Below the pieces are notes generated by a model, which was not told the DNA's origin, searched no databases, and worked only from the letters and a program-made list of their open reading frames with translations. A stretch of DNA of 64,000 nucleotides from Escherichia coli (GTDB taxonomy: Bacteria; Pseudomonadota; Gammaproteobacteria; Enterobacterales; Enterobacteriaceae), in NCBI RefSeq assembly GCF_003991155.1, contig NZ_CP031293.1. The stretch is one strand, 5' to 3'. The translations under genes and the position numbers were made by a program. Numbering within the stretch: position 1 is the stretch's first letter; each line of letters opens with the position of its first letter. Below are positions 1,110-60,711 of the stretch, in pieces.

Positions 1110-3344
1110 ATGGTTGCGGTAAGAAGTGCACATATCAATAAGGCTGGTGAATTTGATCCGGAAAAATGGATCGCAAGTCTGGGTATTACCAGCCAGAAGT
1201 CGTGTGAGTGCTTAGCCGAAACCTGGGCGTATTGTCTGCAACAGACGCAGGGGCATCCGGATGCCAGTTTGTTATTGTGGCGTGGTGTTGAGATGGTGGA
1301 GATCCTCTCGACATTAAGTATGGACATTGACACGCTGCGGGCGGCGCTGCTGTTCCCTCTGGCTGATGCCAACGTAGTCAGCGAAGATGTGCTGCGTGAG
1401 AGCGTCGGTAAGTCGGTCGTTAACCTTATTCACGGCGTGCGTGATATGGCGGCGATCCGCCAGCTGAAAGCGACGCACACTGATTCTGTTTCCTCCGAAC
1501 AGGTCGATAACGTTCGCCGGATGTTATTGGCGATGGTCGATGATTTTCGCTGCGTGGTCATCAAACTGGCGGAGCGTATTGCTCACCTGCGCGAAGTAAA
1601 AGATGCGCCGGAAGATGAACGCGTACTGGCGGCAAAAGAGTGCACCAATATCTACGCGCCGTTGGCGAACCGTCTTGGGATTGGGCAACTGAAATGGGAG
1701 CTGGAAGATTACTGCTTCCGTTATCTGCACCCGACCGAATACAAACGCATCGCAAAACTGCTGCATGAACGCCGTCTCGACCGCGAACACTATATCGAAG
1801 AGTTTGTCGGCCATCTGCGCGCTGAGATGAAAGCTGAAGGCGTTAAAGCTGAAGTGTATGGTCGTCCGAAACACATCTACAGCATCTGGCGCAAAATGCA
1901 GAAAAAGAACCTCGCCTTCGATGAGCTGTTTGATGTGCGTGCGGTACGTATTGTCGCCGAGCGTTTACAGGATTGTTATGCCGCACTGGGGATAGTGCAC
2001 ACTCACTATCGCCACCTGCCGGATGAGTTCGACGATTACGTTGCTAACCCGAAACCAAACGGTTATCAGTCTATTCATACCGTGGTTCTGGGGCCGGGTG
2101 GAAAAACCGTTGAGATCCAAATCCGCACCAAACAGATGCATGAAGATGCAGAGCTGGGTGTTGCTGCGCACTGGAAATATAAAGAGGGCGCGGCTGCTGG
2201 CGGCGCACGTTCGGGACATGAAGACCGGATTGCCTGGCTGCGTAAACTGATTGCGTGGCAGGAAGAGATGGCTGATTCCGGCGAAATGCTCGACGAAGTA
2301 CGTAGCCAGGTCTTTGACGACCGGGTGTACGTCTTTACGCCGAAAGGTGATGTCGTTGATTTGCCTGCGGGATCAACACCGCTGGACTTCGCTTACCACA
2401 TCCACAGTGATGTCGGACACCGCTGCATCGGGGCAAAAATTGGCGGGCGCATTGTGCCGTTCACCTACCAGCTGCAGATGGGCGACCAGATTGAAATTAT
2501 CACCCAGAAACAGCCGAACCCCAGCCGTGACTGGTTAAACCCAAATCTCGGTTACGTCACAACCAGTCGTGGGCGCTCGAAAATTCACGCCTGGTTCCGT
2601 AAACAGGATCGTGACAAAAACATTCTGGCTGGACGGCAAATCCTTGATGACGAGCTGGAACATCTGGGGATCAGCCTGAAAGAAGCAGAAAAACACCTGC
2701 TGCCGCGTTACAACTTCAATGATGTCGACGAGTTGCTGGCGGCGATTGGTGGCGGGGATATCCGTCTCAATCAGATGGTGAACTTCCTGCAATCGCAATT
2801 TAATAAGCCGAGTGCCGAAGAGCAGGATGCCGCCGCGCTGAAACAGCTTCAGCAAAAAAGCTACACGCCGCAAAACCGCAGTAAAGATAACGGTCGTGTG
2901 GTGGTAGAAGGTGTCGGTAACCTGATGCACCACATCGCGCGCTGCTGCCAGCCGATTCCTGGAGATGAGATTGTCGGCTTCATTACCCAGGGACGCGGTA
3001 TTTCAGTACACCGCGCCGATTGCGAACAACTGGCGGAACTGCGCTCCCATGCGCCAGAACGCATTGTTGACGCGGTATGGGGCGAGAGCTACTCCGCCGG
3101 ATATTCGCTGGTGGTCCGCGTGGTGGCTAATGATCGTAGTGGGTTGTTACGTGATATCACGACCATTCTCGCCAACGAGAAGGTGAACGTACTTGGCGTT
3201 GCCAGCCGTAGCGACACCAAACAGCAACTGGCAACCATCGACATGACTATTGAGATTTATAACCTGCAGGTGTTGGGGCGCGTGCTGGGTAAACTCAACC
3301 AGGTGCCGGATGTTATCGATGCACGTCGGTTGCACGGGAGTTAG
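1110..3344 (+). CDS. relA: GTP pyrophosphokinase, (p)ppGpp synthetase I
   Basis: 744 aa ORF; HD-like and RelA/SpoT synthetase, TGS and ACT regions recognisable; RBS GGAGAGGA upstream. Confidence 0.96.
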   Translation: MVAVRSAHINKAGEFDPEKWIASLGITSQKSCECLAETWAYCLQQTQGHPDASLLLWRGVEMVEILSTLSMDIDTLRAALLFPLADANVVSEDVLRESVGKSVVNLIHGVRDMAAIRQLKATHTDSVSSEQVDNVRRMLLAMVDDFRCVVIKLAERIAHLREVKDAPEDERVLAAKECTNIYAPLANRLGIGQLKWELEDYCFRYLHPTEYKRIAKLLHERRLDREHYIEEFVGHLRAEMKAEGVKAEVYGRPKHIYSIWRKMQKKNLAFDELFDVRAVRIVAERLQDCYAALGIVHTHYRHLPDEFDDYVANPKPNGYQSIHTVVLGPGGKTVEIQIRTKQMHEDAELGVAAHWKYKEGAAAGGARSGHEDRIAWLRKLIAWQEEMADSGEMLDEVRSQVFDDRVYVFTPKGDVVDLPAGSTPLDFAYHIHSDVGHRCIGAKIGGRIVPFTYQLQMGDQIEIITQKQPNPSRDWLNPNLGYVTTSRGRSKIHAWFRKQDRDKNILAGRQILDDELEHLGISLKEAEKHLLPRYNFNDVDELLAAIGGGDIRLNQMVNFLQSQFNKPSAEEQDAAALKQLQQKSYTPQNRSKDNGRVVVEGVGNLMHHIARCCQPIPGDEIVGFITQGRGISVHRADCEQLAELRSHAPERIVDAVWGESYSAGYSLVVRVVANDRSGLLRDITTILANEKVNVLGVASRSDTKQQLATIDMTIEIYNLQVLGRVLGKLNQVPDVIDARRLHGS

Positions 3345-3360
3345 GCCGAAATTTGCTCGT

Positions 3361-3395
3361 ATCTACAATGTAGATTGATATATACTGTATCTACA
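3361..3395. promoter_or_regulatory. mazEF promoter/operator with overlapping (alternating) palindromes
   Basis: TCTACAATGTAGA palindrome at 3362-3374 and TGTAGAT/ATCTACA arms at 3369-3375 and 3389-3395 directly upstream of mazE. Confidence 0.6.
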
Positions 3396-3421
3396 TATGA
3401 TAGCGGTTTGAGGAAAGGGTT

Positions 3422-3670
3422 ATGATCCACAGTAGCGTAAAGCGTTGGGGAAATTCTCCTGCAGTGCGGATCCCAGCTACGTTAATGCAGGCGCTCAATC
3501 TGAATATTGATGATGAAGTGAAGATTGGCCTGGTGGATGGCAAATTAATTATTGAGCCAGTACGTAAAGAGCCCGTATTTACGCTTGCTGAACTGGTCAG
3601 CGACATCACGCCGGAAAACCTCCACGAGAATATCGACTGGGGGGAGCCGAAAGATAAGGAAGTCTGGTAA
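3422..3670 (+). CDS. mazE: antitoxin MazE
   Basis: 82 aa; AbrB/SpoVT-like fold sequence [23 protein letters not shown]; overlaps mazF start by 1 nt. Confidence 0.95.
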
Positions 3671-4005
3671 TGGTAAGCCGATACGTACCCGATATGGGCG
3701 ATCTGATTTGGGTTGATTTTGACCCGACAAAAGGTAGCGAGCAAGCCGGACATCGTCCGGCTGTTGTCCTCAGTCCGTTCATGTACAACAACAAAACAGG
3801 TATGTGTCTGTGTGTTCCTTGTACAACGCAATCAAAAGGATATCCGTTTGAAGTTGTTCTATCCGGTCAGGAACGTGATGGCGTAGCGTTAGCTGATCAG
3901 GTAAAAAGTATCGCCTGGCGGGCAAGAGGAGCAACGAAGAAAGGAACAGTTGCCCCAGAGGAATTACAACTCATTAAAGCCAAAATTAACGTGCTGATTG
4001 GGTAG
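3670..4005 (+). CDS. mazF: endoribonuclease toxin MazF
   Basis: 111 aa PemK/MazF family; start overlaps mazE stop (TAATG). Confidence 0.95.
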   Translation: MVSRYVPDMGDLIWVDFDPTKGSEQAGHRPAVVLSPFMYNNKTGMCLCVPCTTQSKGYPFEVVLSGQERDGVALADQVKSIAWRARGATKKGTVAPEELQLIKAKINVLIG

Positions 4006-4076
4006 GTGTTACTAACTCACTTCTATTCTGGTCACAGGTTTCCACCTGACGGACCCGCAATTTTCAGGACAATTCA

Positions 4077-4868
4077 ATGAATCAAATCGACCGTTTGCTC
4101 ACCATCATGCAGCGCCTGCGCGACCCGGAAAACGGCTGCCCGTGGGATAAAGAGCAGACATTTGCCACCATTGCGCCTTACACCCTTGAAGAAACCTACG
4201 AGGTGCTGGACGCCATCGCCCGTGAAGATTTTGACGATCTGCGCGGTGAACTGGGCGATCTGCTGTTCCAGGTGGTGTTTTACGCGCAAATGGCTCAGGA
4301 AGAAGGGCGCTTTGACTTTAATGATATTTGCGCCGCGATTAGCGATAAATTAGAGCGTCGCCATCCGCATGTTTTTGCTGACAGTTCTGCCGAAAACAGT
4401 AGTGAAGTGCTCGCCCGTTGGGAGCAAATCAAAACCGAAGAACGCGCGCAGAAAGCACAGCATTCGGCGCTGGATGATATTCCTCGTAGTTTACCGGCTT
4501 TAATGCGTGCGCAAAAAATCCAGAAACGTTGCGCCAACGTTGGCTTCGACTGGACGACGCTTGGTCCGGTAGTCGATAAAGTCTACGAAGAGATCGACGA
4601 GGTGATGTACGAGGCGCAGCAGGCTGTTGTCGACCAGGCTAAACTGGAGGAGGAAATGGGTGACCTGCTGTTTGCCACGGTCAATCTGGCTCGTCATTTA
4701 GGGACAAAAGCGGAAATCGCATTGCAAAAAGCGAACGAAAAATTCGAGCGTCGTTTTCGCGAAGTGGAGCGTATTGTTGCCGCGCGTGGACTGGAAATGA
4801 CAGGTGTTGACCTCGAAACAATGGAAGAAGTCTGGCAACAGGTAAAACGGCAGGAAATTGATCTCTAA
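4077..4868 (+). CDS. mazG: nucleoside triphosphate pyrophosphohydrolase MazG
   Basis: 263 aa, two MazG-type EExxE-containing repeats. Confidence 0.93.
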   Translation: MNQIDRLLTIMQRLRDPENGCPWDKEQTFATIAPYTLEETYEVLDAIAREDFDDLRGELGDLLFQVVFYAQMAQEEGRFDFNDICAAISDKLERRHPHVFADSSAENSSEVLARWEQIKTEERAQKAQHSALDDIPRSLPALMRAQKIQKRCANVGFDWTTLGPVVDKVYEEIDEVMYEAQQAVVDQAKLEEEMGDLLFATVNLARHLGTKAEIALQKANEKFERRFREVERIVAARGLEMTGVDLETMEEVWQQVKRQEIDL

Positions 4869-5080
4869 GGGAATTACGCGGTCAAGCGCCATTTGTGTCA
4901 TTTTTTAAATGACAAGCGCTTGATTTGCGTCAAAAACATTTACCCCAAAGGGGCTATTTTCTCACTCCTGATTTCAATAGTGCGCTGGCGAAGAGGAGGG
5001 ATAATGAAAGTTTGTGGCACAGGTCATGTTCGGGTATACTGCTTTCCCGTCCTGGTTATTCCATCGTCTTTTCAACCTAA

Positions 5081-6733
<1,653 letters not shown>

Positions 6734-6751
6734 GAAAAAAGTTAGAACGGC

Positions 6752-6780
6752 AACGCGTACCCTGGGTACGCGTTGTTTGT
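6752..6780 (+). terminator. hairpin between pyrG and eno (partial terminator / processing site)
   Basis: AACGCGTAC-cctgg-GTACGCGTT perfect 9-bp stem followed by GTTTGT. Confidence 0.45.
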
Positions 6781-6804
6781 CTGGAGTTTCAGTTTAACTA
6801 GTGA

Positions 6805-8118
<1,314 letters not shown>

Positions 8119-12656: not shown

Positions 12657-13664
12657 TTATCGGTAGCGTTTTTGTAGACTGGCTGGAAGATAACGCTGTA
12701 ATGGGGATGGCGTTTCACCTTCAATCAGTTGCGAAATAAGCTCAAAGCAGTGAAAAGCAAGTTGGCGATTATCCTGTTGTATTGTGTCGATTCTTACCGA
12801 AAGTGAATCATACAAGTAATGATCATCAAAACTCGCCAGGTGGATTTTACTGTCGAGTAAATTATATTGGCTCATATAGCGCAGAACGCCTTCCAGTAAT
12901 CCACAAGCGGCAGTGAATAAGGCTTTAGGGGGACGTCCTAAACGAGCGCATAGCGCGGCAAACATTTCATAGCCTGAGCTCGGATGATAATTACCGTGAA
13001 TAATCCATTCAGGTTGTAGCGTTACTCCGGCTTGCTGCAAGCCTTGTGTAAATCCTTCCAGTCGATCGCGAGTCGGTGACAAACGGGGTTGTCCCCCCAG
13101 AAAATAGAATTCATCCGGGTGACTCCGTGCAATATCTGCCACCAGAGCGGTGGTGGGAGAAACAGAGTCAGTAATGACCAATGGCAATGTGCTGCCGTTC
13201 ATGTGGCGATCGAACAACACAACAGGTAATTGCTCGCTAAGTTTTTGATAGTCATTATCATGCAGCATACTGGATGCGACGATTAACCCATCAACCTGGC
13301 GGGCAATCATATTGTTCACCACCATTGTTTCCTGTGAAGGATTTTCATCAGTACAGGATATGAGGAGTTGGACGCCCGCTTCCCGACACAATGTTTCCAG
13401 TTCATGGGAAAATACTGCAAATCCGTAGTTAGTGATTTCAGGAACGACGAGACCAATGGTATGACTGCGGTTGTCCCGTAATGAGCGGGCATGAATGCTG
13501 GGCTGATAATGCTGCTGTTGGGCAATACTCAGCACACGCTCACGCGTTTCCTGCGCAACACGTAACTCTTTGCCACGACCATTGAGAACCAGACTGGCGG
13601 TTGCTTTCGACACTCCCGCCAGTTCAGCAATGTCTTTAATAGTAACGCGTTTGGTTTTTCTCAC
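12657..13664 (-). CDS. scrR: LacI-family sucrose operon repressor
   Basis: 335 aa; N-terminal HTH ([23 protein letters not shown]); position at end of scr operon. Confidence 0.88.
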
Positions 13665-13689
13665 GACGAGGATCCGTAATTCAAAACCC

Positions 13690-15099
13690 TCATTCTACCA
13701 TGCAGGCGCGTAGCGACCAGTAGCGTAACGTGACGTCAGACTCACCCTGTAATATCAGCGAAGCTGGATGATGGGGAAAATAACGATTACTCATTACACC
13801 TTCACCATTATTGATGAATATCTCTACGCTGGAACTGTCACAGAGAATCTTCAGTGACGTTACGCTTCCTCGCCAGTAACGAGTTAGTTTCTCTTGCCCT
13901 GCAAGGCTTCTCCTCTGTAGTTGAATACCATCGTCATTAAGATGCAGTGCCAGCGCATTGCCAAAATTCAGATACAGCTCACCCGACGGAATGATGTCCA
14001 TTTCCAGGCGTTCAATTTCGACATGCGGCGCATGATCTGCTTTTCCTTGCCAGAAGTGTTCAGCTTCACGCAGTTGCGCGAGTTCCCTGATTGGCATCTG
14101 AAACAATTTTCCCTTCTGGAATGAGAGTTCGCGAAAACAGGTCATTTGATGCTGCCAATGATGCTTTCTGGTTGGTTGCAACATCTCTTCGCCATCAGGA
14201 ACCCCCATCCAGCCGACCAGCAATCGTCGCCCGTCCGGGGCTTCCATCGTCTGTGGTGCATAGAATTCAAATCCCGCATCCAGCTCTGAGAAAGCGCCAT
14301 GCGTAAATTTGCCTGTCTCGTAATCAAACTGTCCATGTAGCCAGGCGCAGGGATAAGTATTCAGATAGCGCTCATGTTCGCGCACCATTCCCTGGGGGCA
14401 ACAGAGGAGAATGTATTCACCATCAAGGGCGAAAAAATCAGGACATTCCCACATGTATCCTGCGTTATCTATTTCATTCAGACCGTTACCAGCAATTTCT
14501 CCATGAAAAGACCAGGTATAGAGATCGACAGAGGAATACAGCAGCACTTTCCCCCGTTTCTCTTTATCTTGCGCGCCAAGCACCATGTACCATTGGCTGT
14601 TGTGCTTCCAGACTTTTGGATCACGAACATGTCCGGTGTAACCATCAGGTAACGGTATGACAGGGCCTAGTTTATCAAACCCGCCCTGGTTATTTTCGGT
14701 GGCCAGGCATTGCCATGCCGTTCTGCTGCCATCATCAAACTTAACATTACCGGTATAGCAAAGTGTGAGAACGCCCTGATTATTAACCGCGCTTCCTGAG
14801 TAACAACCATTACGGTCGTACTCTTTATCGGGCATTAGCGCTAATGGTTCATGCTGCCAGTGCAATAAATCCGTCGAACTCCAGTGCCCCCAACATTTGT
14901 ACTTATGATCACAAGCCAGTGGATTCCACTGATAAAACAGATGATAGCGGCCTCCAGACCAGCAAAAGCCATTTGGATCGTTCATTAGTCCAGTGACGGG
15001 AGCGAGATGCCAACAAGGATAGTGGGCATCTGCCAGTACTTTGGACTGACCTTTCATCACTGCCTGTAAAATCGCGGGCATTTGTGAAGGCATCGACAT
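13690..15099 (-). CDS. scrB: sucrose-6-phosphate hydrolase (GH32 invertase)
   Basis: 469 aa; GH32 motif MNDPNGF, WECPD; start overlaps scrA stop. Confidence 0.92.
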
Positions 15100-16469
15100 T
15101 ACTCCTCGTCCGTTTTGTATTTGAGTAATAAAGAGAGGCTAAAAGCGACAGCGAAAGCAATCACCATTCCAATAATATAATTAACCAACGATGTTGGCTG
15201 AACGATTGCCATGCCGGGTATTGCGGTCAGACCAACGGCAGTCATATAAACGTGAACAGAGACAACCCAGGCACCGCCGGCAGCGCCACCAATTAAGGCC
15301 GCAATAAAAGGTTTAACAAAACGAAGGTTGATACCAAAAATAGCGGCTTCAGTAATCCCTAACATTGCGGAAAAGGCCGAGGGTAGGGTGATTGCTTTAA
15401 TTTTTGTATCTTTGGTTTTAAACCATACCGCCAGACATGCACCGCCTTGCGCAACGTTTGCCATTGCCCAAATAGGCAGCAGGAAATTAACACCGATTGC
15501 AGGGTTACCTAAAAGTCCTGCTTCAATTGCGTGGAAGCTATGATGAATACCCGTAATAACAATCGCTGAATATAGTCCGCCGAATAACAACCCTGCTAAC
15601 CAGCCTGCGTGTGCAATCAGCGTGCTGAGAACGAAAGAGATACCGTCACCTAACGCTCGTCCTGCCGGACCAATAATCAAAAGAGCGATAAAGCCAGAAA
15701 TGACGACAGTCAGAAATGGCGTCAGAATGAGATCCAGAGCATCAGGGATAAACCTGCGTAACTGTTTTTCCACTATGCTCATAAACCATACTGCCAGAAG
15801 TACGGGGAAAACCGTTCCCTGATAGCCAATCATGGCGATTTCAAAACCGAAGAAGTTCATTGTCTGAAATCCCGCAGCAACGCCCCAGGCATTTGTGAGT
15901 GCCGGGTGAGTCAGAATCCCTCCTAATGTCGCGCCAAGATAAGGATTTCCACCAAATTCACGAGCAGCAGTAAAGCCAATAAGGATGGGGAGAATAATAA
16001 ATGCGGCTGAACTGCACATATCCAGCAGGATATAAATCGCATTATCGGCATTCACCCAGCCATATATTTTCACCATTCCCAGAAGCCCCATTAATAAACC
16101 AGAAGCAACAATGGCTGGAATGATGGGGACAAAAATATTAGAAAGTAGCCGTGCTATTCGCTGAAAAGGATTGAGTTTTTGAGCGGCGAGTCGAGCGGTA
16201 TCTGCTTTACTGGATTCGCTAATACCTGCAACCTGAATAAAGGCAGCATAGACTTTATTAACCACGCCGGTGCCAAAGATGATTTGCATTTGCCCTGAAT
16301 TACGAAAACAACCTTTCACTCCATCAATCTGGCCAATGGCATGTTGATCGGCAAGTGTGTCGTCAACCAGTACCAGCCGTAGGCGAGTGGCGCAATGTGC
16401 TGCACTGGTGATGTTCTCCTTACCACCTAATAAAGGAAGCAACGATTGGGCGATTTTATCGAAATCCAT
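15099..16469 (-). CDS. scrA: PTS sucrose-specific EIIBC component
   Basis: 456 aa; EIIB Cys motif (AAHCATRLRL) followed by EIIC membrane domain. Confidence 0.92.
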   Translation of the reverse strand: MDFDKIAQSLLPLLGGKENITSAAHCATRLRLVLVDDTLADQHAIGQIDGVKGCFRNSGQMQIIFGTGVVNKVYAAFIQVAGISESSKADTARLAAQKLNPFQRIARLLSNIFVPIIPAIVASGLLMGLLGMVKIYGWVNADNAIYILLDMCSSAAFIILPILIGFTAAREFGGNPYLGATLGGILTHPALTNAWGVAAGFQTMNFFGFEIAMIGYQGTVFPVLLAVWFMSIVEKQLRRFIPDALDLILTPFLTVVISGFIALLIIGPAGRALGDGISFVLSTLIAHAGWLAGLLFGGLYSAIVITGIHHSFHAIEAGLLGNPAIGVNFLLPIWAMANVAQGGACLAVWFKTKDTKIKAITLPSAFSAMLGITEAAIFGINLRFVKPFIAALIGGAAGGAWVVSVHVYMTAVGLTAIPGMAIVQPTSLVNYIIGMVIAFAVAFSLSLLLKYKTDEE

Positions 16470-16529
16470 ATAACCCTCTAATTCATTGTTATTTCAGTAA
16501 AAGCCTCACATCCGTGAGGCTGTCTGGTA

Positions 16530-18071
<1,542 letters not shown>

Positions 18072-18091
18072 TTATAAAAATTGCTAAAATG

Positions 18092-18105
18092 CTAAACCGG
18101 TTTAG
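18092..18105. promoter_or_regulatory. candidate ScrR operator (perfect palindrome CTAAACCGGTTTAG) upstream of scrY
   Basis: 14-bp perfect palindrome in scrK-scrY intergenic region. Confidence 0.6.
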
Positions 18106-18150
18106 GTGTTGATAATAAAGCTGACTTTTTAGCCAGAGCAATTATTTTCG

Positions 18151-18164
18151 CTAAACCGATTTAG
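18151..18164. promoter_or_regulatory. candidate second ScrR operator (CTAAACCGATTTAG)
   Basis: near-perfect copy of the palindrome 59 bp from the first. Confidence 0.55.
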
Positions 18165-18217
18165 TAAATGTGACAGGCACGACAAATCGGGTTACAGATA
18201 CAACAGCAGGATCACTA

Positions 18218-19135
18218 TTATGAAGGGAGATCGTGTTGTCGGGGTAAGGCGGTCATCGCGCCTTTAGCCGTGGTCGCCAGAGCACCACAAATCTGAGCTT
18301 GTGCAATGATTCGTTCAAGCTGTCTGGTATTTGTTGGTATTCCAGAATCAGCCAGACCTGCAAGTAATCCAGCGACAAAAGCATCTCCTGCCCCGGTCGT
18401 ATCGACGACAGAAACAGGTTTGGCGGGATAGTGGATAAACTGCCCCTGAAAATACACAAGTACGCCATTTTTTCCTTGTGTAATAAGCAATAAAGTCAAC
18501 GAATAACGTTGTACTAATGAATATGCGCCTTGCTGAACCTGGCTTTCGCCACTGATGAATAGCAACTCTTCTTCGGACAATTTAGCGATATTCGCCAGCG
18601 AAAGTGCGCGATCAAGGTATTTCCTTAATAGCGCTTCACTCTGCCAGAGATCGCTGCGGATATTGGGATCAAAACTGATGTTTCCGCCAGCCTGACGTAT
18701 TTTCTCCATAGCCAGAAATGCGGTACTTCGGGAAGGTTCTGCACTGAGCGCAATGGAACAAAGATGGAGCCATTCACCCGGCCCAAATGCAGGAAGGTCA
18801 CCAGGTTGTAAAAAAAGATCGGCACTTGGGCGTACCATAAAGGTAAAGTTTCTTTCTCCTTGCTCATCAAGTCCTACAGCCACAATTGAGGTGCGTTGTT
18901 GAGGATCAAGAGACATATAACGTGTATCAACATTTTCTGTACTCAGTGTCTGATACATAAAGCGACCGAAAGGATCATCGCCAACTTTGCCAATAAAGGC
19001 ACTTTTCCCCCCCAGCCTTGCGATACCGACTGCAACATTAGCAGGCGCCCCGCCAGGACACTGTAGTAGTCTCCCCTGGCTTTCGGGTAATAAATCAACA
19101 ACCGCATCACCGAGTACCCATACTCTTGCGCTCAT
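18218..19135 (-). CDS. scrK: fructokinase (PfkB family)
   Basis: 305 aa; PfkB/ribokinase motifs (DTTGAGDAF); first gene of scr cluster; RBS GGAG. Confidence 0.9.
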   Translation of the reverse strand: MSARVWVLGDAVVDLLPESQGRLLQCPGGAPANVAVGIARLGGKSAFIGKVGDDPFGRFMYQTLSTENVDTRYMSLDPQQRTSIVAVGLDEQGERNFTFMVRPSADLFLQPGDLPAFGPGEWLHLCSIALSAEPSRSTAFLAMEKIRQAGGNISFDPNIRSDLWQSEALLRKYLDRALSLANIAKLSEEELLFISGESQVQQGAYSLVQRYSLTLLLITQGKNGVLVYFQGQFIHYPAKPVSVVDTTGAGDAFVAGLLAGLADSGIPTNTRQLERIIAQAQICGALATTAKGAMTALPRQHDLPS

Positions 19136-35150: not shown

Positions 35151-35357
35151 CGAGCAGGATTCCTGATTTTAAACGTGAACGCCGCAGGAAGAATCAACAG
35201 GCATAGAATGGCGTTGGGTGCTTGAGGCTGTCTGGCGTTAAGCATTCGCGAGGTTCCAGATGGACAAAAGCCCCAGGCGATATTTCTATCAACCTGAGGC
35301 CAGCGTTCGAACCTAAGCAATTCGGATGTTAGTCTCTTCTTTGCAGGGAGGCAAGAC

Positions 35358-35510
35358 ATGCTGACAAAATATGCCCTTGTGGCAATCATCGTACTGTGTT
35401 GTACAGTACTGGGATTCACGTTGATGGTAGGCGACTCGTTGTGTGAGTTGAGTATCAGAGAACGTGGTATGGAGTTTAAGGCAGTTCTCGCTTACGAATC
35501 GAAGAAGTAG
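35358..35510 (+). CDS. hokX: Hok/Gef-family type I toxin (small membrane peptide), 50 aa
   Basis: [50 protein letters not shown]: N-terminal TM helix, conserved LCE and AYES motifs of Hok; RBS GGGAGG; not in ORF track (below size cutoff); symbol by position next to cysH, from memory. Confidence 0.8.
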
Positions 35511-53288: not shown

Positions 53289-53633
53289 ATGTCCGGCAAG
53301 CGTATCTCTCGTGAAAAACTGACGATTAAAAAAATGATCGATCTTTATCAAGCGAAATGCCCGCAGGCGTCAGCGGAGCCGGAGCATTACGACGCGCTGT
53401 TTGCCTACGCGCAAAAGCGGCTGGATAAATGTGTGTTCGGCGAAGAGAAACCAGCCTGTAAGCAGTGTCCGGTGCACTGTTACCAGCCAGCAAAGCGTGA
53501 AGAGATGAAACAGATTATGCGTTGGGCCGGGCCGCGAATGCTGTGGCGTCATCCGATCTTAACCGTGCGTCATCTCATCGATGACAAGCGTCCGGTGCCG
53601 GAGTTGCCAGAAAAATATCGTCCAAAGAAATAA
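53289..53633 (+). CDS. ygbA: nitrous-oxide-stimulated promoter family protein YgbA
   Basis: 114 aa; Cys-rich (CPQ...CKQCPVHC). Confidence 0.85.
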   Translation: MSGKRISREKLTIKKMIDLYQAKCPQASAEPEHYDALFAYAQKRLDKCVFGEEKPACKQCPVHCYQPAKREEMKQIMRWAGPRMLWRHPILTVRHLIDDKRPVPELPEKYRPKK

Positions 53634-53671
53634 ATCTGCCGGAGAGCCATACTCTCCGGCAAATAAGGCGT

Positions 53672-54100
53672 TTACGCTTTGGTGGCAATCAGGATGGCTG
53701 ATGCTTTGATCAATGCAATAACGCGCGAGCCAGTGGTGAGTTTCATTTCATCCTGACTTTCATTTGTTACCACTGCCACAATTTCAAAACCCGCATCCGT
53801 TTTGATATGGACAGTGGCGTTCACTGCGCCTTCGGTGATTGTCGACACGCTGCCAGCAAACTGGTTGCGAGCAGAGAATTTCAGTCCACAGTCTTCCGTT
53901 GCCAGTGTTACCCACGGGGCTTTAATCAGGGCAATCGCTTCTTTCCCTTTTGCCAGACCAAGAGCCTGCTGGCTGCTGTGTGTAACAATTGCCACCAGCT
54001 TTGCACCACCTGCCAGCGTCAGTTCTACTTCATCATTCACAGCGCCCATTGCTACTGCGCTAACTGTTCCGGTTAATTGATTTCTTGCTGAAACTGCCAT
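53672..54100 (-). CDS. molybdenum-pterin-binding (Mop, di-TOBE) protein
   Basis: 142 aa from MAVSARNQLTG with RBS AGGAGG; two tandem TOBE repeats each beginning SARNQ(L/F)(T/A)G(T/S)VS. Confidence 0.75.
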   Translation of the reverse strand: MAVSARNQLTGTVSAVAMGAVNDEVELTLAGGAKLVAIVTHSSQQALGLAKGKEAIALIKAPWVTLATEDCGLKFSARNQFAGSVSTITEGAVNATVHIKTDAGFEIVAVVTNESQDEMKLTTGSRVIALIKASAILIATKA

Positions 54101-54144
54101 ACTGCCTCCTTTCATTGAATGTTGATCGAGTATAACCACATCTG

Positions 54145-56223
54145 TTAAATCAATGCCGATTTATCAATTCCCAGTCGCTTCATCCGTGACAGCAGGGTCG
54201 TGCGTTTCAGCCCCAGACGTTGCGCAGCGCCTTTAGGTCCGGCAACCACGCCGTTAGTTTCTTTCAGCACGCGAACAATCAACTGATATTCATCTTCGCC
54301 CTCCTGAGCGACAACCGTTGCGGCAGGCGGCGTTTCAGGTTCTGGTAAAGCAATATCTGGCAATGACAGCTGCAGCACGTTGCCGCGTGTTAGCAATACC
54401 GCGCGCTCAATGACGTTTTCCAGCTCACGCACGTTGCCCGGCCATTCCATGTTGCTCAGGATGCGCAGCGTCTCGGCAGGAATGCTGTCGATATTGCGCC
54501 CCAGACGACGGGCAATTTTGAAGGTAAAGGCTTTCGCCAGCAGCGGAATATCTTCCGGACGCTCGCGTAGTGGCGGCAGGTGGATCGGGAATACGTTCAG
54601 GCGGTAATAGAGATCGCTACGGAACTCTCGGTCGGCGACCATTTTTTTCAGATCGCGGTTAGTCGCGGCAATTAAACGTACGTCCGTCTGAATGATTTTG
54701 TTGCTGCCAAGACGTTCAAACTCCTGTTCCTGTAATACACGCAGCAACTTCGGCTGTAACTCCAGCGGCATATCGCCCACTTCATCGAGGAATAGTGAGC
54801 TTTTATCCGCCAGTTCAAAACGACCAATGCGCTGAGCGCTGGCACCGGTAAAAGCCCCACGCTCATGACCAAATAGATCGCTTTCCAGCAATCCGGCAGG
54901 CATCGCCGCGCAGTTCATTTTGACCATGCGGCGATTATTACGCCCACTGAGATTATGGATCGCGCGGGCAATCAGCTCTTTACCTGTACCAGTTTCACCG
55001 AGGATCAGCACGGTACTGTCACTTTGCGCCACCATTTCAACTTGTTTAAGTACGCTGTACATGGCTTCGCTGCGGCCAATAATCTCGCCAAATTCACTAT
55101 CAACATTGTTGAGCTGCTCGGTCAGGGCGAGGTTTTCATCAACCAGCCGTTCTTTCAGACGATGAATTTCCTGATAGGCGAGGGCGTTATCGACAGCGAT
55201 TGCCACACGTTCGGCAATCTGGCGCAGTAAGCTCAGATTGGTAGTGGTAAATACTTTCTCTTCGCATTGCGCCAGTTTCAGCACGCCCAGCATGGTGTCG
55301 CCAGACATCAGCGGTAACAGGCACAAGGTTTGAATCTGGTTGCCCCAGGTGTCGAACAACATGCGTTCATAGGGGGCTAAATCGTCCCGCTCGTGGAGAT
55401 TAATCAACAGCATCTCTTTACTTTTGAAGACGCGTTCGGTGAGGGTTCCGGCTTCATCGACTTCGCTCTGTTCGTGGGCGGGATGCTGTTTATCAAGATA
55501 GTGAGTGGAGTAGATGTTGAGTTTGTTTTTACGGTGGCTGCGTAAGACAATGCTGATATCGTCAATGTCGAAATAGTAATGGATTTCTTTGGCGACTTCG
55601 CTGACCAGTTCGTCCATATCCAGGCGGGAAAGCACCGCGTTGGTGATGGCGACCAGGATGCGGAAGTTATCGCGTTCCCGGCATAACAACTCATAGTCGA
55701 CATTGTTAACGACGCGGCTCTGGATTTGTTCGGTGACGACAGAAACGATCTGCGTAAATGTTTGCAGGCGATTGAACTCTTTTTCACTCCACGGGCGATC
55801 GTCATAACGAATAAATTCACAGCCACCAAAAATATGCCCTTCCGCCGCCAGTGGCATCAGGCAATAGTGACCAAATTTGGGGTATAGCCCACCTGCGGCC
55901 AGCTGCGGCCAGGTTTCACAAAATTCTTCGTAACTGCAATGCAGCGTATCAGGGCGCGACAAAATGCTGCGTACCGGACCGTGTGCCAGAACAGTTTCGT
56001 CTTCATATTTAATGGGGGTGTCTTTTTCACGCGACGCGTAATAAGACGCACGTTGAGTCTGCGCTTGCCACAACACAATAGCCGCGTTGTCGGCGAGCGC
56101 AGAACGCTTTACCAGTTGCGAAAGAGCCTCACACAGCGAGGCCAGATCGGGCTGCTGCAATAGTGTCCGAGTGATGTCGAACAACCCTTGTTGTCCGAGA
56201 TCACTCATCGGTGTATATGACAT
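54145..56223 (-). CDS. fhlA: formate hydrogenlyase transcriptional activator (sigma-54 dependent)
   Basis: 692 aa from MSYTPMSDLG; GAF domains, AAA+ sigma-54 activator (GETGTGKE, GAFTGA), C-terminal HTH. Confidence 0.95.
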   Translation of the reverse strand: MSYTPMSDLGQQGLFDITRTLLQQPDLASLCEALSQLVKRSALADNAAIVLWQAQTQRASYYASREKDTPIKYEDETVLAHGPVRSILSRPDTLHCSYEEFCETWPQLAAGGLYPKFGHYCLMPLAAEGHIFGGCEFIRYDDRPWSEKEFNRLQTFTQIVSVVTEQIQSRVVNNVDYELLCRERDNFRILVAITNAVLSRLDMDELVSEVAKEIHYYFDIDDISIVLRSHRKNKLNIYSTHYLDKQHPAHEQSEVDEAGTLTERVFKSKEMLLINLHERDDLAPYERMLFDTWGNQIQTLCLLPLMSGDTMLGVLKLAQCEEKVFTTTNLSLLRQIAERVAIAVDNALAYQEIHRLKERLVDENLALTEQLNNVDSEFGEIIGRSEAMYSVLKQVEMVAQSDSTVLILGETGTGKELIARAIHNLSGRNNRRMVKMNCAAMPAGLLESDLFGHERGAFTGASAQRIGRFELADKSSLFLDEVGDMPLELQPKLLRVLQEQEFERLGSNKIIQTDVRLIAATNRDLKKMVADREFRSDLYYRLNVFPIHLPPLRERPEDIPLLAKAFTFKIARRLGRNIDSIPAETLRILSNMEWPGNVRELENVIERAVLLTRGNVLQLSLPDIALPEPETPPAATVVAQEGEDEYQLIVRVLKETNGVVAGPKGAAQRLGLKRTTLLSRMKRLGIDKSALI

Positions 56224-60587: not shown

Positions 60588-60711
60588 GCTGAGGCTTTGC
60601 CCGTTTTGCAGGCGTTACGCCTGTTTGGGGATGGGCGTGTCGATGAGTGTCGAAAATGACATTTCATCGGCATGTTTTCGTCAAAAATGACAATCACCTG
60701 AGGAATGACTG

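Follow-up and report, generated by a model that had tools for sequence, protein, structure and literature searches.

The ygbA-mop-fhlA locus

The window, meaning the whole stretch of 64,000 nucleotides of Escherichia coli DNA that was analysed (RefSeq assembly GCF_003991155.1, contig NZ_CP031293.1), carries a small gene between fhlA and ygbA, here called mop, whose product is built from two tandem Mop (TOBE) domains. Apart from one mismatch, the window equals positions 3297434-3361433 of strain 2016C-3878 (NZ_CP029747.1) read as the reverse complement; this sole base difference, at window position 60599, falls in the hycA-hycB intergenic region. In 2016C-3878 the counterpart of mop is annotated by RefSeq as 'TOBE domain-containing protein' (WP_000301062.1). 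The genes and signals of the locus are as follows.

53289..53633, plus strand: ygbA (NO-stimulated promoter family protein), convergent with mop; PF11756 at E 4e-41, NF007713
53634..53664, minus strand: intrinsic terminator hairpin directly after the mop stop codon, shared with the convergent ygbA (bidirectional); 14-pair stem followed by a T-run
53672..54100, minus strand: mop (modG-like) coding sequence, 142 amino acids plus stop; two tandem Mop (TOBE) domains, at about residues 1-70 and 73-142; from the open reading frame listing and profile matches
53672..54144, no strand: 473-bp segment absent from K-12-type E. coli, comprising the mop coding sequence and the spacer; from alignment with MG1655
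54101..54144, minus strand: fhlA-mop spacer of 44 nt, putative read-through route from hyp-fhlA
54105..54110, minus strand: Shine-Dalgarno sequence AGGAGG, 4 nt 5' of the mop ATG; read from the sequence
54129..54134, minus strand: -10-like hexamer TATACT, 34 nt 5' of the ATG; candidate element of a promoter of mop itself
54145..56223, minus strand: fhlA (formate hydrogenlyase transcriptional activator), directly upstream on the same strand; from the RefSeq annotation of the near-identical strain 2016C-3878 and the open reading frame

The original prediction, of a 142-residue protein with two TOBE repeats and a strong AGGAGG ribosome-binding site lying between ygbA and fhlA, is borne out by the sequence. 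The open reading frame runs from an ATG at 54100 to a stop codon at 53674..53672 on the minus strand of the window, its repeats open with SARNQLTGTVS (residues 4-14) and SARNQFAGSVS (residues 76-86), the AGGAGG is read at 54110..54105, and the gene is enclosed by ygbA on the plus strand and, on the minus strand, by the end of fhlA at 54145, the mop start lying 44 nt downstream of the fhlA stop codon (54145-54147). A GGAG core stands 5' of the mop ATG in all listed loci, and in most of them it is GGAGG. An alternative GTG start at 54139, which would give 155 residues and is found in a few GenBank records (for example P0128), is disfavoured by the ribosome-binding site, by the N-termini of the orthologs, all of which begin M(A/S/T)(V/I)SARNQ and are 142 residues long, and by the alignment with the ModG protein of Azotobacter vinelandii, which starts from the same residue. 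The RefSeq pipeline (PGAP) calls the formate hydrogenlyase activator gene of these genomes (window 54145-56223, minus strand) 'flhA', a name swapped with that of a flagellar gene; the correct name is fhlA.

Several further features of the window may be recorded in passing. A hok/sok module lies at 35216-35510 on the plus strand between iap and cysH (Rfam sok RF01794 at 110 bits, with a Hok/Gef coding sequence at about 35358-35510); in K-12 this interval is the site of the type I-E CRISPR-Cas locus, and no cas genes are annotated in it in the window. Between ygcE and queE, at about 12657-19135, is a sucrose utilisation cluster (kinase, carbohydrate porin, sucrose PTS IIBC, sucrose-6-phosphate hydrolase and LacI-type regulator) that we take to be accessory relative to K-12. 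The mutS-rpoS region, a known strain polymorphism, holds at about 46816-49637 genes for hydroxyarylic acid decarboxylase subunits B, C and D and a MarR-family regulator, in place of ygbI-N of K-12.

Domain content, predicted fold and relatives of the mop product

The Pfam search for TOBE domains that had been suggested with the original prediction finds PF03459 twice in the mop product (E 8.8e-35, 119.2 bits against a cutoff of 22.3), and the NCBIfam Mop profile TIGR00638 likewise matches twice (E 4.1e-42, 142 bits against a cutoff of 55). TOBE-type profiles alone pass their curated cutoffs, which leaves a protein of about 140 residues consisting of two tandem Mop domains only; profile search of the product found no DNA-binding, ATPase or signalling domain. 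The ModE equivalog NF007957 is matched over profile positions 124-261 only, at 88 bits against a cutoff of 369, and the N-terminal winged helix of ModE is absent. The second repeat also weakly matches the C-terminal regulatory region, with its TOBE domain, of the ModC/WtpC ABC-transporter ATPases, from which the mop product differs in having no ATPase domain (47 bits against a cutoff of 285).

Among solved structures the nearest is ModG, entry 1H9J, in which residues 4-143 of the chain align with residues 1-140 of the query (E 5e-33). The next-best PDB matches are the di-Mop domain of E. coli ModE (E 1e-15) and then the single-domain molbindins Tub, Mop II and 1FR3, the last of which we take to be the Mop of Sporomusa ovata. 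An AlphaFold2 model, a predicted monomer made from a 21-sequence alignment, has a mean pLDDT of 96.5, and Foldseek places it closest in the PDB to 1H9J, 1H9K and 1H9M (TM 0.94-0.95, rmsd 1.3-1.4 A, 48% identity), with the ModE di-Mop structures ranking after ModG at TM of about 0.89.

The likeness to A. vinelandii ModG extends over the full length of a protein of about 140 residues that has only two tandem Mop domains (48% identity, TM 0.95, rmsd 1.3 A), and the SARNQ, GAVN, T and KA ligand motifs are found in both repeats. The setting differs: Azotobacter modG is tied to the mod genes and to the supply of nitrogenase cofactor, whereas here the host is a non-diazotroph and mop comes after fhlA and the genes for hydrogenase maturation. 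A. vinelandii ModG is known from three structures (1H9J, 1H9K and 1H9M; Delarbre et al., 2001, as cited in PMC11980592), and its gene is reported, to judge from the title of a reference cited in PMC11980592, to be regulated by ModE; unlike that gene, mop has no ModE operator detectable upstream. With the C-terminal di-Mop region of E. coli ModE (PDB 1O7L, 1H9S and 1H9R) the mop product has in common the fold (TM 0.89), 34-36% identity and, in its first repeat, SARNQ and the equivalents of T163, S166 and K183-A184. It differs from ModE in lacking the N-terminal DNA-binding domain and in having two intact repeats, whereas the first Mop domain of ModE has SARNQ and the second is degenerate, with ADNQ in its place.

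Each repeat further resembles the single-domain molbindins of about 70 residues, namely Mop II of Clostridium pasteurianum (1GUG), 1FR3 and Tub of Eubacterium limosum (9BEB; PMC11980592), with E values of 1e-9 to 3e-4, 30-41% identity and rmsd of 1.0-1.4 A. These proteins are hexamers, and the mop product, as a fused tandem, would by analogy be expected to form a trimer. In Tub, the type-2 oxyanion site is made up of Ser4, Arg6, Ser40, Lys60 and Ala61, the type-1 site is formed by the backbone of Ala20-Val21-Asn22, and both are said to resemble the sites of Mop, ModE and ModG (PMC11980592). If the roles of these residues are transferred from that study, the ligand positions of repeat 1 of the mop product are present under numbering identical to that of Tub (S4, R6, A20-V21-N22, T40 and K60-A61), and those of repeat 2 follow at an offset of 72 (S76, R78, A92-V93-N94, T112 and K132-A133). 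Most of them are invariant across the 21-sequence alignment, which includes ModG and homologs that are 40-49% identical.

Because both repeats are intact and the second domain of ModE is degenerate at the motif, the mop product is, by every sequence- and fold-level feature considered, a di-Mop protein of the ModG type and not of the ModE type. The identification as a molybdate-binding di-TOBE protein, made in the original prediction, holds for the domains, the predicted fold and the ligand residues; binding of molybdate or tungstate is a prediction from homology and is, given these same features, very likely. Tub binds both molybdate and tungstate (PMC11980592), and the selectivity of the mop product between the two is not readable from its sequence. 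The two-TOBE architecture, termed 'TudG/ModG', is recognised as widespread in gut genomes (PMC11980592). Full-text literature searches found no paper studying the enterobacterial mop gene or its loss from K-12. What is already known, then, is the ModG/di-Mop kind of protein and a generic RefSeq annotation; what is new is an ancestral enterobacterial member and its loss from K-12.

Conservation at fhlA, the K-12 deletion allele and mobile copies

A scan of one genome per species (GTDB), with neighbouring genes located by tblastn using HypE, FhlA, YgbA and MutS of the window, yielded 49 related loci, in most of which mop follows fhlA on the same strand, an order that holds in at least 10 genera. 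The arrangement hypE-fhlA-mop on one strand is found in Escherichia albertii, another Escherichia sp., eight Citrobacter, Pseudocitrobacter, Raoultella, Klebsiella (species other than K. pneumoniae), Kluyvera, Pluralibacter, several Enterobacter, Yokenella, Lelliottia and Kosakonia. The convergent ygbA lies directly 3' of mop in Escherichia, Citrobacter and several other genera, and elsewhere it is a few kb away or was undetected. All intact copies from the Enterobacterales encode exactly 142 residues, and a length of 429 nt is shared by the coding sequence of the window and 47 of the 49 obtained from the related loci. With dN/dS relative to the window at 0.03-0.09, comparison of the coding sequences places mop under strong purifying selection. 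One exception is Enterobacter sp. EA-1 (L045, 6001-6342), where a frameshift leaves mop with 113 residues and fhlA and hypE give partial matches only; the locus seems to be in decay.

At synonymous sites, mop and its neighbours show divergence of the same order. In E. albertii dS is 0.34 for mop against 0.62 for fhlA, 0.57 for hypE and 0.35 for ygbA; in the other Escherichia sp. the corresponding values are 0.24 against 0.21, 0.19 and 0.35; and in Citrobacter mop stands at 1.07-1.13 against 1.07-2.0 for the neighbours. Since mop has diverged to the same order as fhlA, hypE and ygbA, these sequence comparisons indicate vertical inheritance at the fhlA locus, and on the same ground a recent horizontal gain in E. 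coli is rejected.

The original prediction had stated that ygbA and fhlA are adjacent in K-12 and that mop is missing there, and the alignment it called for agrees: in MG1655 the 473-bp segment is lacking and nothing stands between the two genes. To our knowledge, E. coli K-12 has no stand-alone Mop protein elsewhere either. The fhlA stop codon of K-12 occupies the position of the mop stop codon, beside a related terminator hairpin. Comparison of the two alleles at the 3' end of ygbA and the hairpin (window 53560-53670 against positions 1810-1930 of the K-12 locus, L001) shows an 8-nt indel and a differing end of ygbA, the YgbA protein having 117 residues in K-12 (a coding sequence of 354 nt) and 114 here. 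The hairpins differ by paired changes that keep the stem, which reads GCCGGAGAG/CTCTCCGGC in the window and GCCGGACAG/CTGTCCGGC in K-12.

Among 5,426 complete E. coli genomes searched by megablast, the whole ygbA-mop-fhlA interval is present in 1,889, and the rest, K-12 MG1655 among them, align with it as two separate segments (55% coverage). The 473-bp mop segment occurs once, and always on the chromosome, in 1,892 genomes (about 35%), none of those searched having a second near-identical copy. The K-12-type junction, detected with a probe of 101 nt spanning the K-12 ygbA/fhlA boundary, is complete in 3,505 (about 65%). Together the two alleles account for 5,394 of the 5,426 genomes, and the deletion allele has a single junction. 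Genomes with mop include those of EC958, S88 and FDA Seattle 1946, which we take to be B2 strains, and those with the deletion allele include HS and Xuzhou21, presumably of phylogroup A and serotype O157:H7, respectively.

Allele counts and synteny indicate that the K-12-type state is the derived one, mop predating E. coli and having been lost once through a 473-bp deletion in an ancestor of the K-12-type strains. The original prediction implied that mop was an addition to the K-12 layout; conserved synteny, neighbour-like dS and the single deletion junction reverse that reading. The loss of mop from two thirds of E. coli also shows that its function is dispensable in many niches.

Copies of mop also occur in settings suggestive of mobility. 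Six Salmonella enterica loci (L055-L060, with mop at 7001-7429 in each) hold copies that are 89-90% identical, in island-like surroundings and not beside fhlA, with IS3/IS21 transposases, a type I restriction-modification system (hsdRSM), an EVE-domain gene, a fimbrial usher, CaiF/GrlA and a DprA-like gene as neighbours. Two different Salmonella contexts share only about 700 bp around mop, and CP022015.1 carries two copies. A stretch of about 20 nt upstream of the island copies that by eye resembled a remnant of fhlA gave no blastn or tblastn match to it. Stand-alone di-TOBE genes of 58-85% identity are found on large IncF plasmids of Klebsiella and Enterobacter and on a megaplasmid of Pantoea sp. 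At-9b (L061, L062 and hits H33-H50); the unrelated accessory genes that neighbour the copies on the Klebsiella IncF plasmids give no clue to function. The plasmids carrying these genes are conjugative. Two PLSDB 'plasmid' records, NZ_CP134663.1 and NZ_CP141089.1 (4.9 Mb), are evidently E. coli chromosomes.

Expression, proposed function and alternative readings

As RNA, the hairpin after mop folds at -28.5 kcal/mol (z = -5.4), and none of 200 shuffled sequences folds as well. At 53664..53634 it is the only terminator-like site in the fhlA-mop-ygbA region, none having been found in the 44-nt spacer between fhlA and mop, and in K-12 its equivalent lies directly after fhlA. Because the sole terminator lies 3' of mop and the spacer has none, the simplest reading of terminator placement is that mop would be the last cistron of the hyp-fhlA transcript or transcripts, expressed by read-through. 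A weak promoter of its own may contribute. The hexamer TATA(C/A)N stands exactly at -34 in Escherichia, Citrobacter, Pseudocitrobacter, Pluralibacter and an Enterobacteriaceae isolate (L028), and an identical GGCTATACT is kept in the Salmonella island copies, which have no fhlA upstream and in which the upstream DNA is otherwise unrelated. A consensus scan of the window and of one Salmonella locus (L055) found no usable -35 element or sigma-70 promoter for mop, and the sole TATAA present in Klebsiella, Raoultella and similar genera is that of the fhlA stop codon. The Salmonella-island and plasmid copies must use another promoter, because they have no fhlA upstream.

Control by ModE was also considered. 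Scored against the operator consensus CGnTATAT-N7-TACATAnCG, the K-12 modA (CGTTATATTGTCGCCTACATAACG) and moaA (CGCTATATACATGATTACATAGCG) operators both reach 17/17. The spacer sequence GGTTATACTCGATCAACATTC, which by eye resembles the modA operator, was rejected as a candidate: in 23 loci the best-scoring site of the 70 nt preceding mop reaches 9-12/17, shuffled sequences averaging about 10, and no ModE operator that would place mop in the ModE regulon was found upstream of the gene in these loci. An Rfam scan at gathering thresholds of the window and of two Salmonella loci likewise detected no riboswitch or other RNA element near mop.

The reading that we consider probable is that mop encodes a ModG-type cytoplasmic molbindin that buffers or stores molybdate or tungstate, that it is ancestral at fhlA and lost from K-12, and that it is likely expressed by read-through. 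To domain content, predicted fold, ligand conservation, synteny, selection and population frequency, which are established directly for mop, this reading adds an oligomeric state, ligand binding, a storage role and co-transcription that we infer. By analogy with A. vinelandii ModG the product would assemble as a trimer, with six Mop domains in all, and two kinds of site between domains would take up as many as eight molybdate or tungstate oxyanions per trimer; the bound oxyanion would be buffered or stored for the synthesis of molybdenum cofactor. As the last gene on the hypABCDE-fhlA strand, mop would be expressed by read-through under anaerobic conditions in the presence of formate.

The original prediction went further in linking the gene to the formate hydrogenlyase (FHL) regulon; on that view the protein would be dedicated to supplying formate dehydrogenase H and the FhlA regulon with molybdate, or to sensing it on their behalf. 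A lead towards such a link comes from the order of fhlA and mop, on one strand in at least 10 genera, and from the want of a terminator between the two genes, and expression of fdhF and hyc is partly dependent on molybdate and ModE (PMC3149613). An FHL-specific role is weakened by the copies that persist where fhlA does not. Raoultella sp. BIGb0138 (L014) and Enterobacter sp. BIGb0383 (L030) have no hyc, hyp or fhlA genes and retain an intact mop of 142 codons together with ygbA, ascF-ascB lying directly upstream of mop (about 2500-7900 in both loci); in the former just the last 45 nt or so of fhlA are left. In Phytobacter and one Kosakonia fhlA is missing from between hypE and mop, mop in Serratia, Cedecea and Edwardsiella stands among unrelated genes (dapA-gcvR-bcp-mop-lrp in Serratia), and the Salmonella and plasmid copies are unlinked to fhlA. 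K-12, moreover, has a working FHL system, and strains of its type are known to run it without mop. As for sensing, that part of the proposal finds no footing in the protein, which has no DNA-binding or signalling domain. A role dedicated to FHL is on this evidence possible though unlikely, and general buffering or storage of molybdate or tungstate, with expression usually coupled to hyp-fhlA and not necessarily so, is favoured over it because mop is kept without fhlA, in unrelated contexts and in mobile copies. In the Raoultella locus, genes for a sitABCD-like metal-uptake transporter, recognised by eye from their translations, lie between mop and ygbA.

It is conceivable that the molbindin acts as a regulatory partner, modulating ModE or FhlA through protein contact or through competition for molybdate. 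In Rhodobacter capsulatus an interaction between Mop and MopB has been reported, which supplies the analogy; mop adjoins the gene of a transcriptional activator, and the di-Mop fold that it has in common with the C-terminal domain of ModE (TM 0.89) makes hetero-oligomers imaginable. The upstream region nonetheless scores at the shuffle level for a ModE operator, where modA and moaA match in full, and mop is retained in genomes without fhlA, so that a partnership of this kind appears very improbable. That mop might be a non-functional remnant or a mis-called reading frame could be argued from its absence from 65% of E. coli and from the frameshifted copy in Enterobacter sp. EA-1. The low dN/dS, the constant length of 142 residues, the invariant ligand motifs, the conserved ribosome-binding site and the high-confidence predicted fold stand against this, and as far as sequence and modelling can decide, the idea is effectively refuted.

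At its most routine, the finding refines an annotation, from 'TOBE domain-containing protein' to 'ModG-like molbindin'. At its most far-reaching, mop would be a lineage-defining modifier of the molybdenum and tungsten economy of E. coli, strains with the gene hoarding molybdate or sequestering tungstate whenever hyp-fhlA is switched on; we regard this as decidedly unlikely. If it were true, strains such as EC958, S88 and the ATCC 25922-like Seattle 1946 would have sturdier formate dehydrogenase H, FHL and respiratory molybdoenzyme activity than K-12-type strains under molybdenum scarcity or exposure to tungstate, and selection for the trait would explain why Salmonella islands and Klebsiella plasmids have repeatedly captured the gene. 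What is known of molybdenum homeostasis and the FHL regulon in E. coli comes nearly all from K-12, and this reference strain is, for an ancestral and strongly conserved molbindin that about one third of complete E. coli genomes, several well-known B2 strains among them, and many other Enterobacteriaceae have kept, a deletion mutant. The mop and mop-deletion alleles offer a system of natural variation for the role of a molbindin outside the nitrogen fixers, and if mop does buffer molybdate or tungstate, its presence could alter how these bacteria cope with molybdenum limitation or with tungstate.
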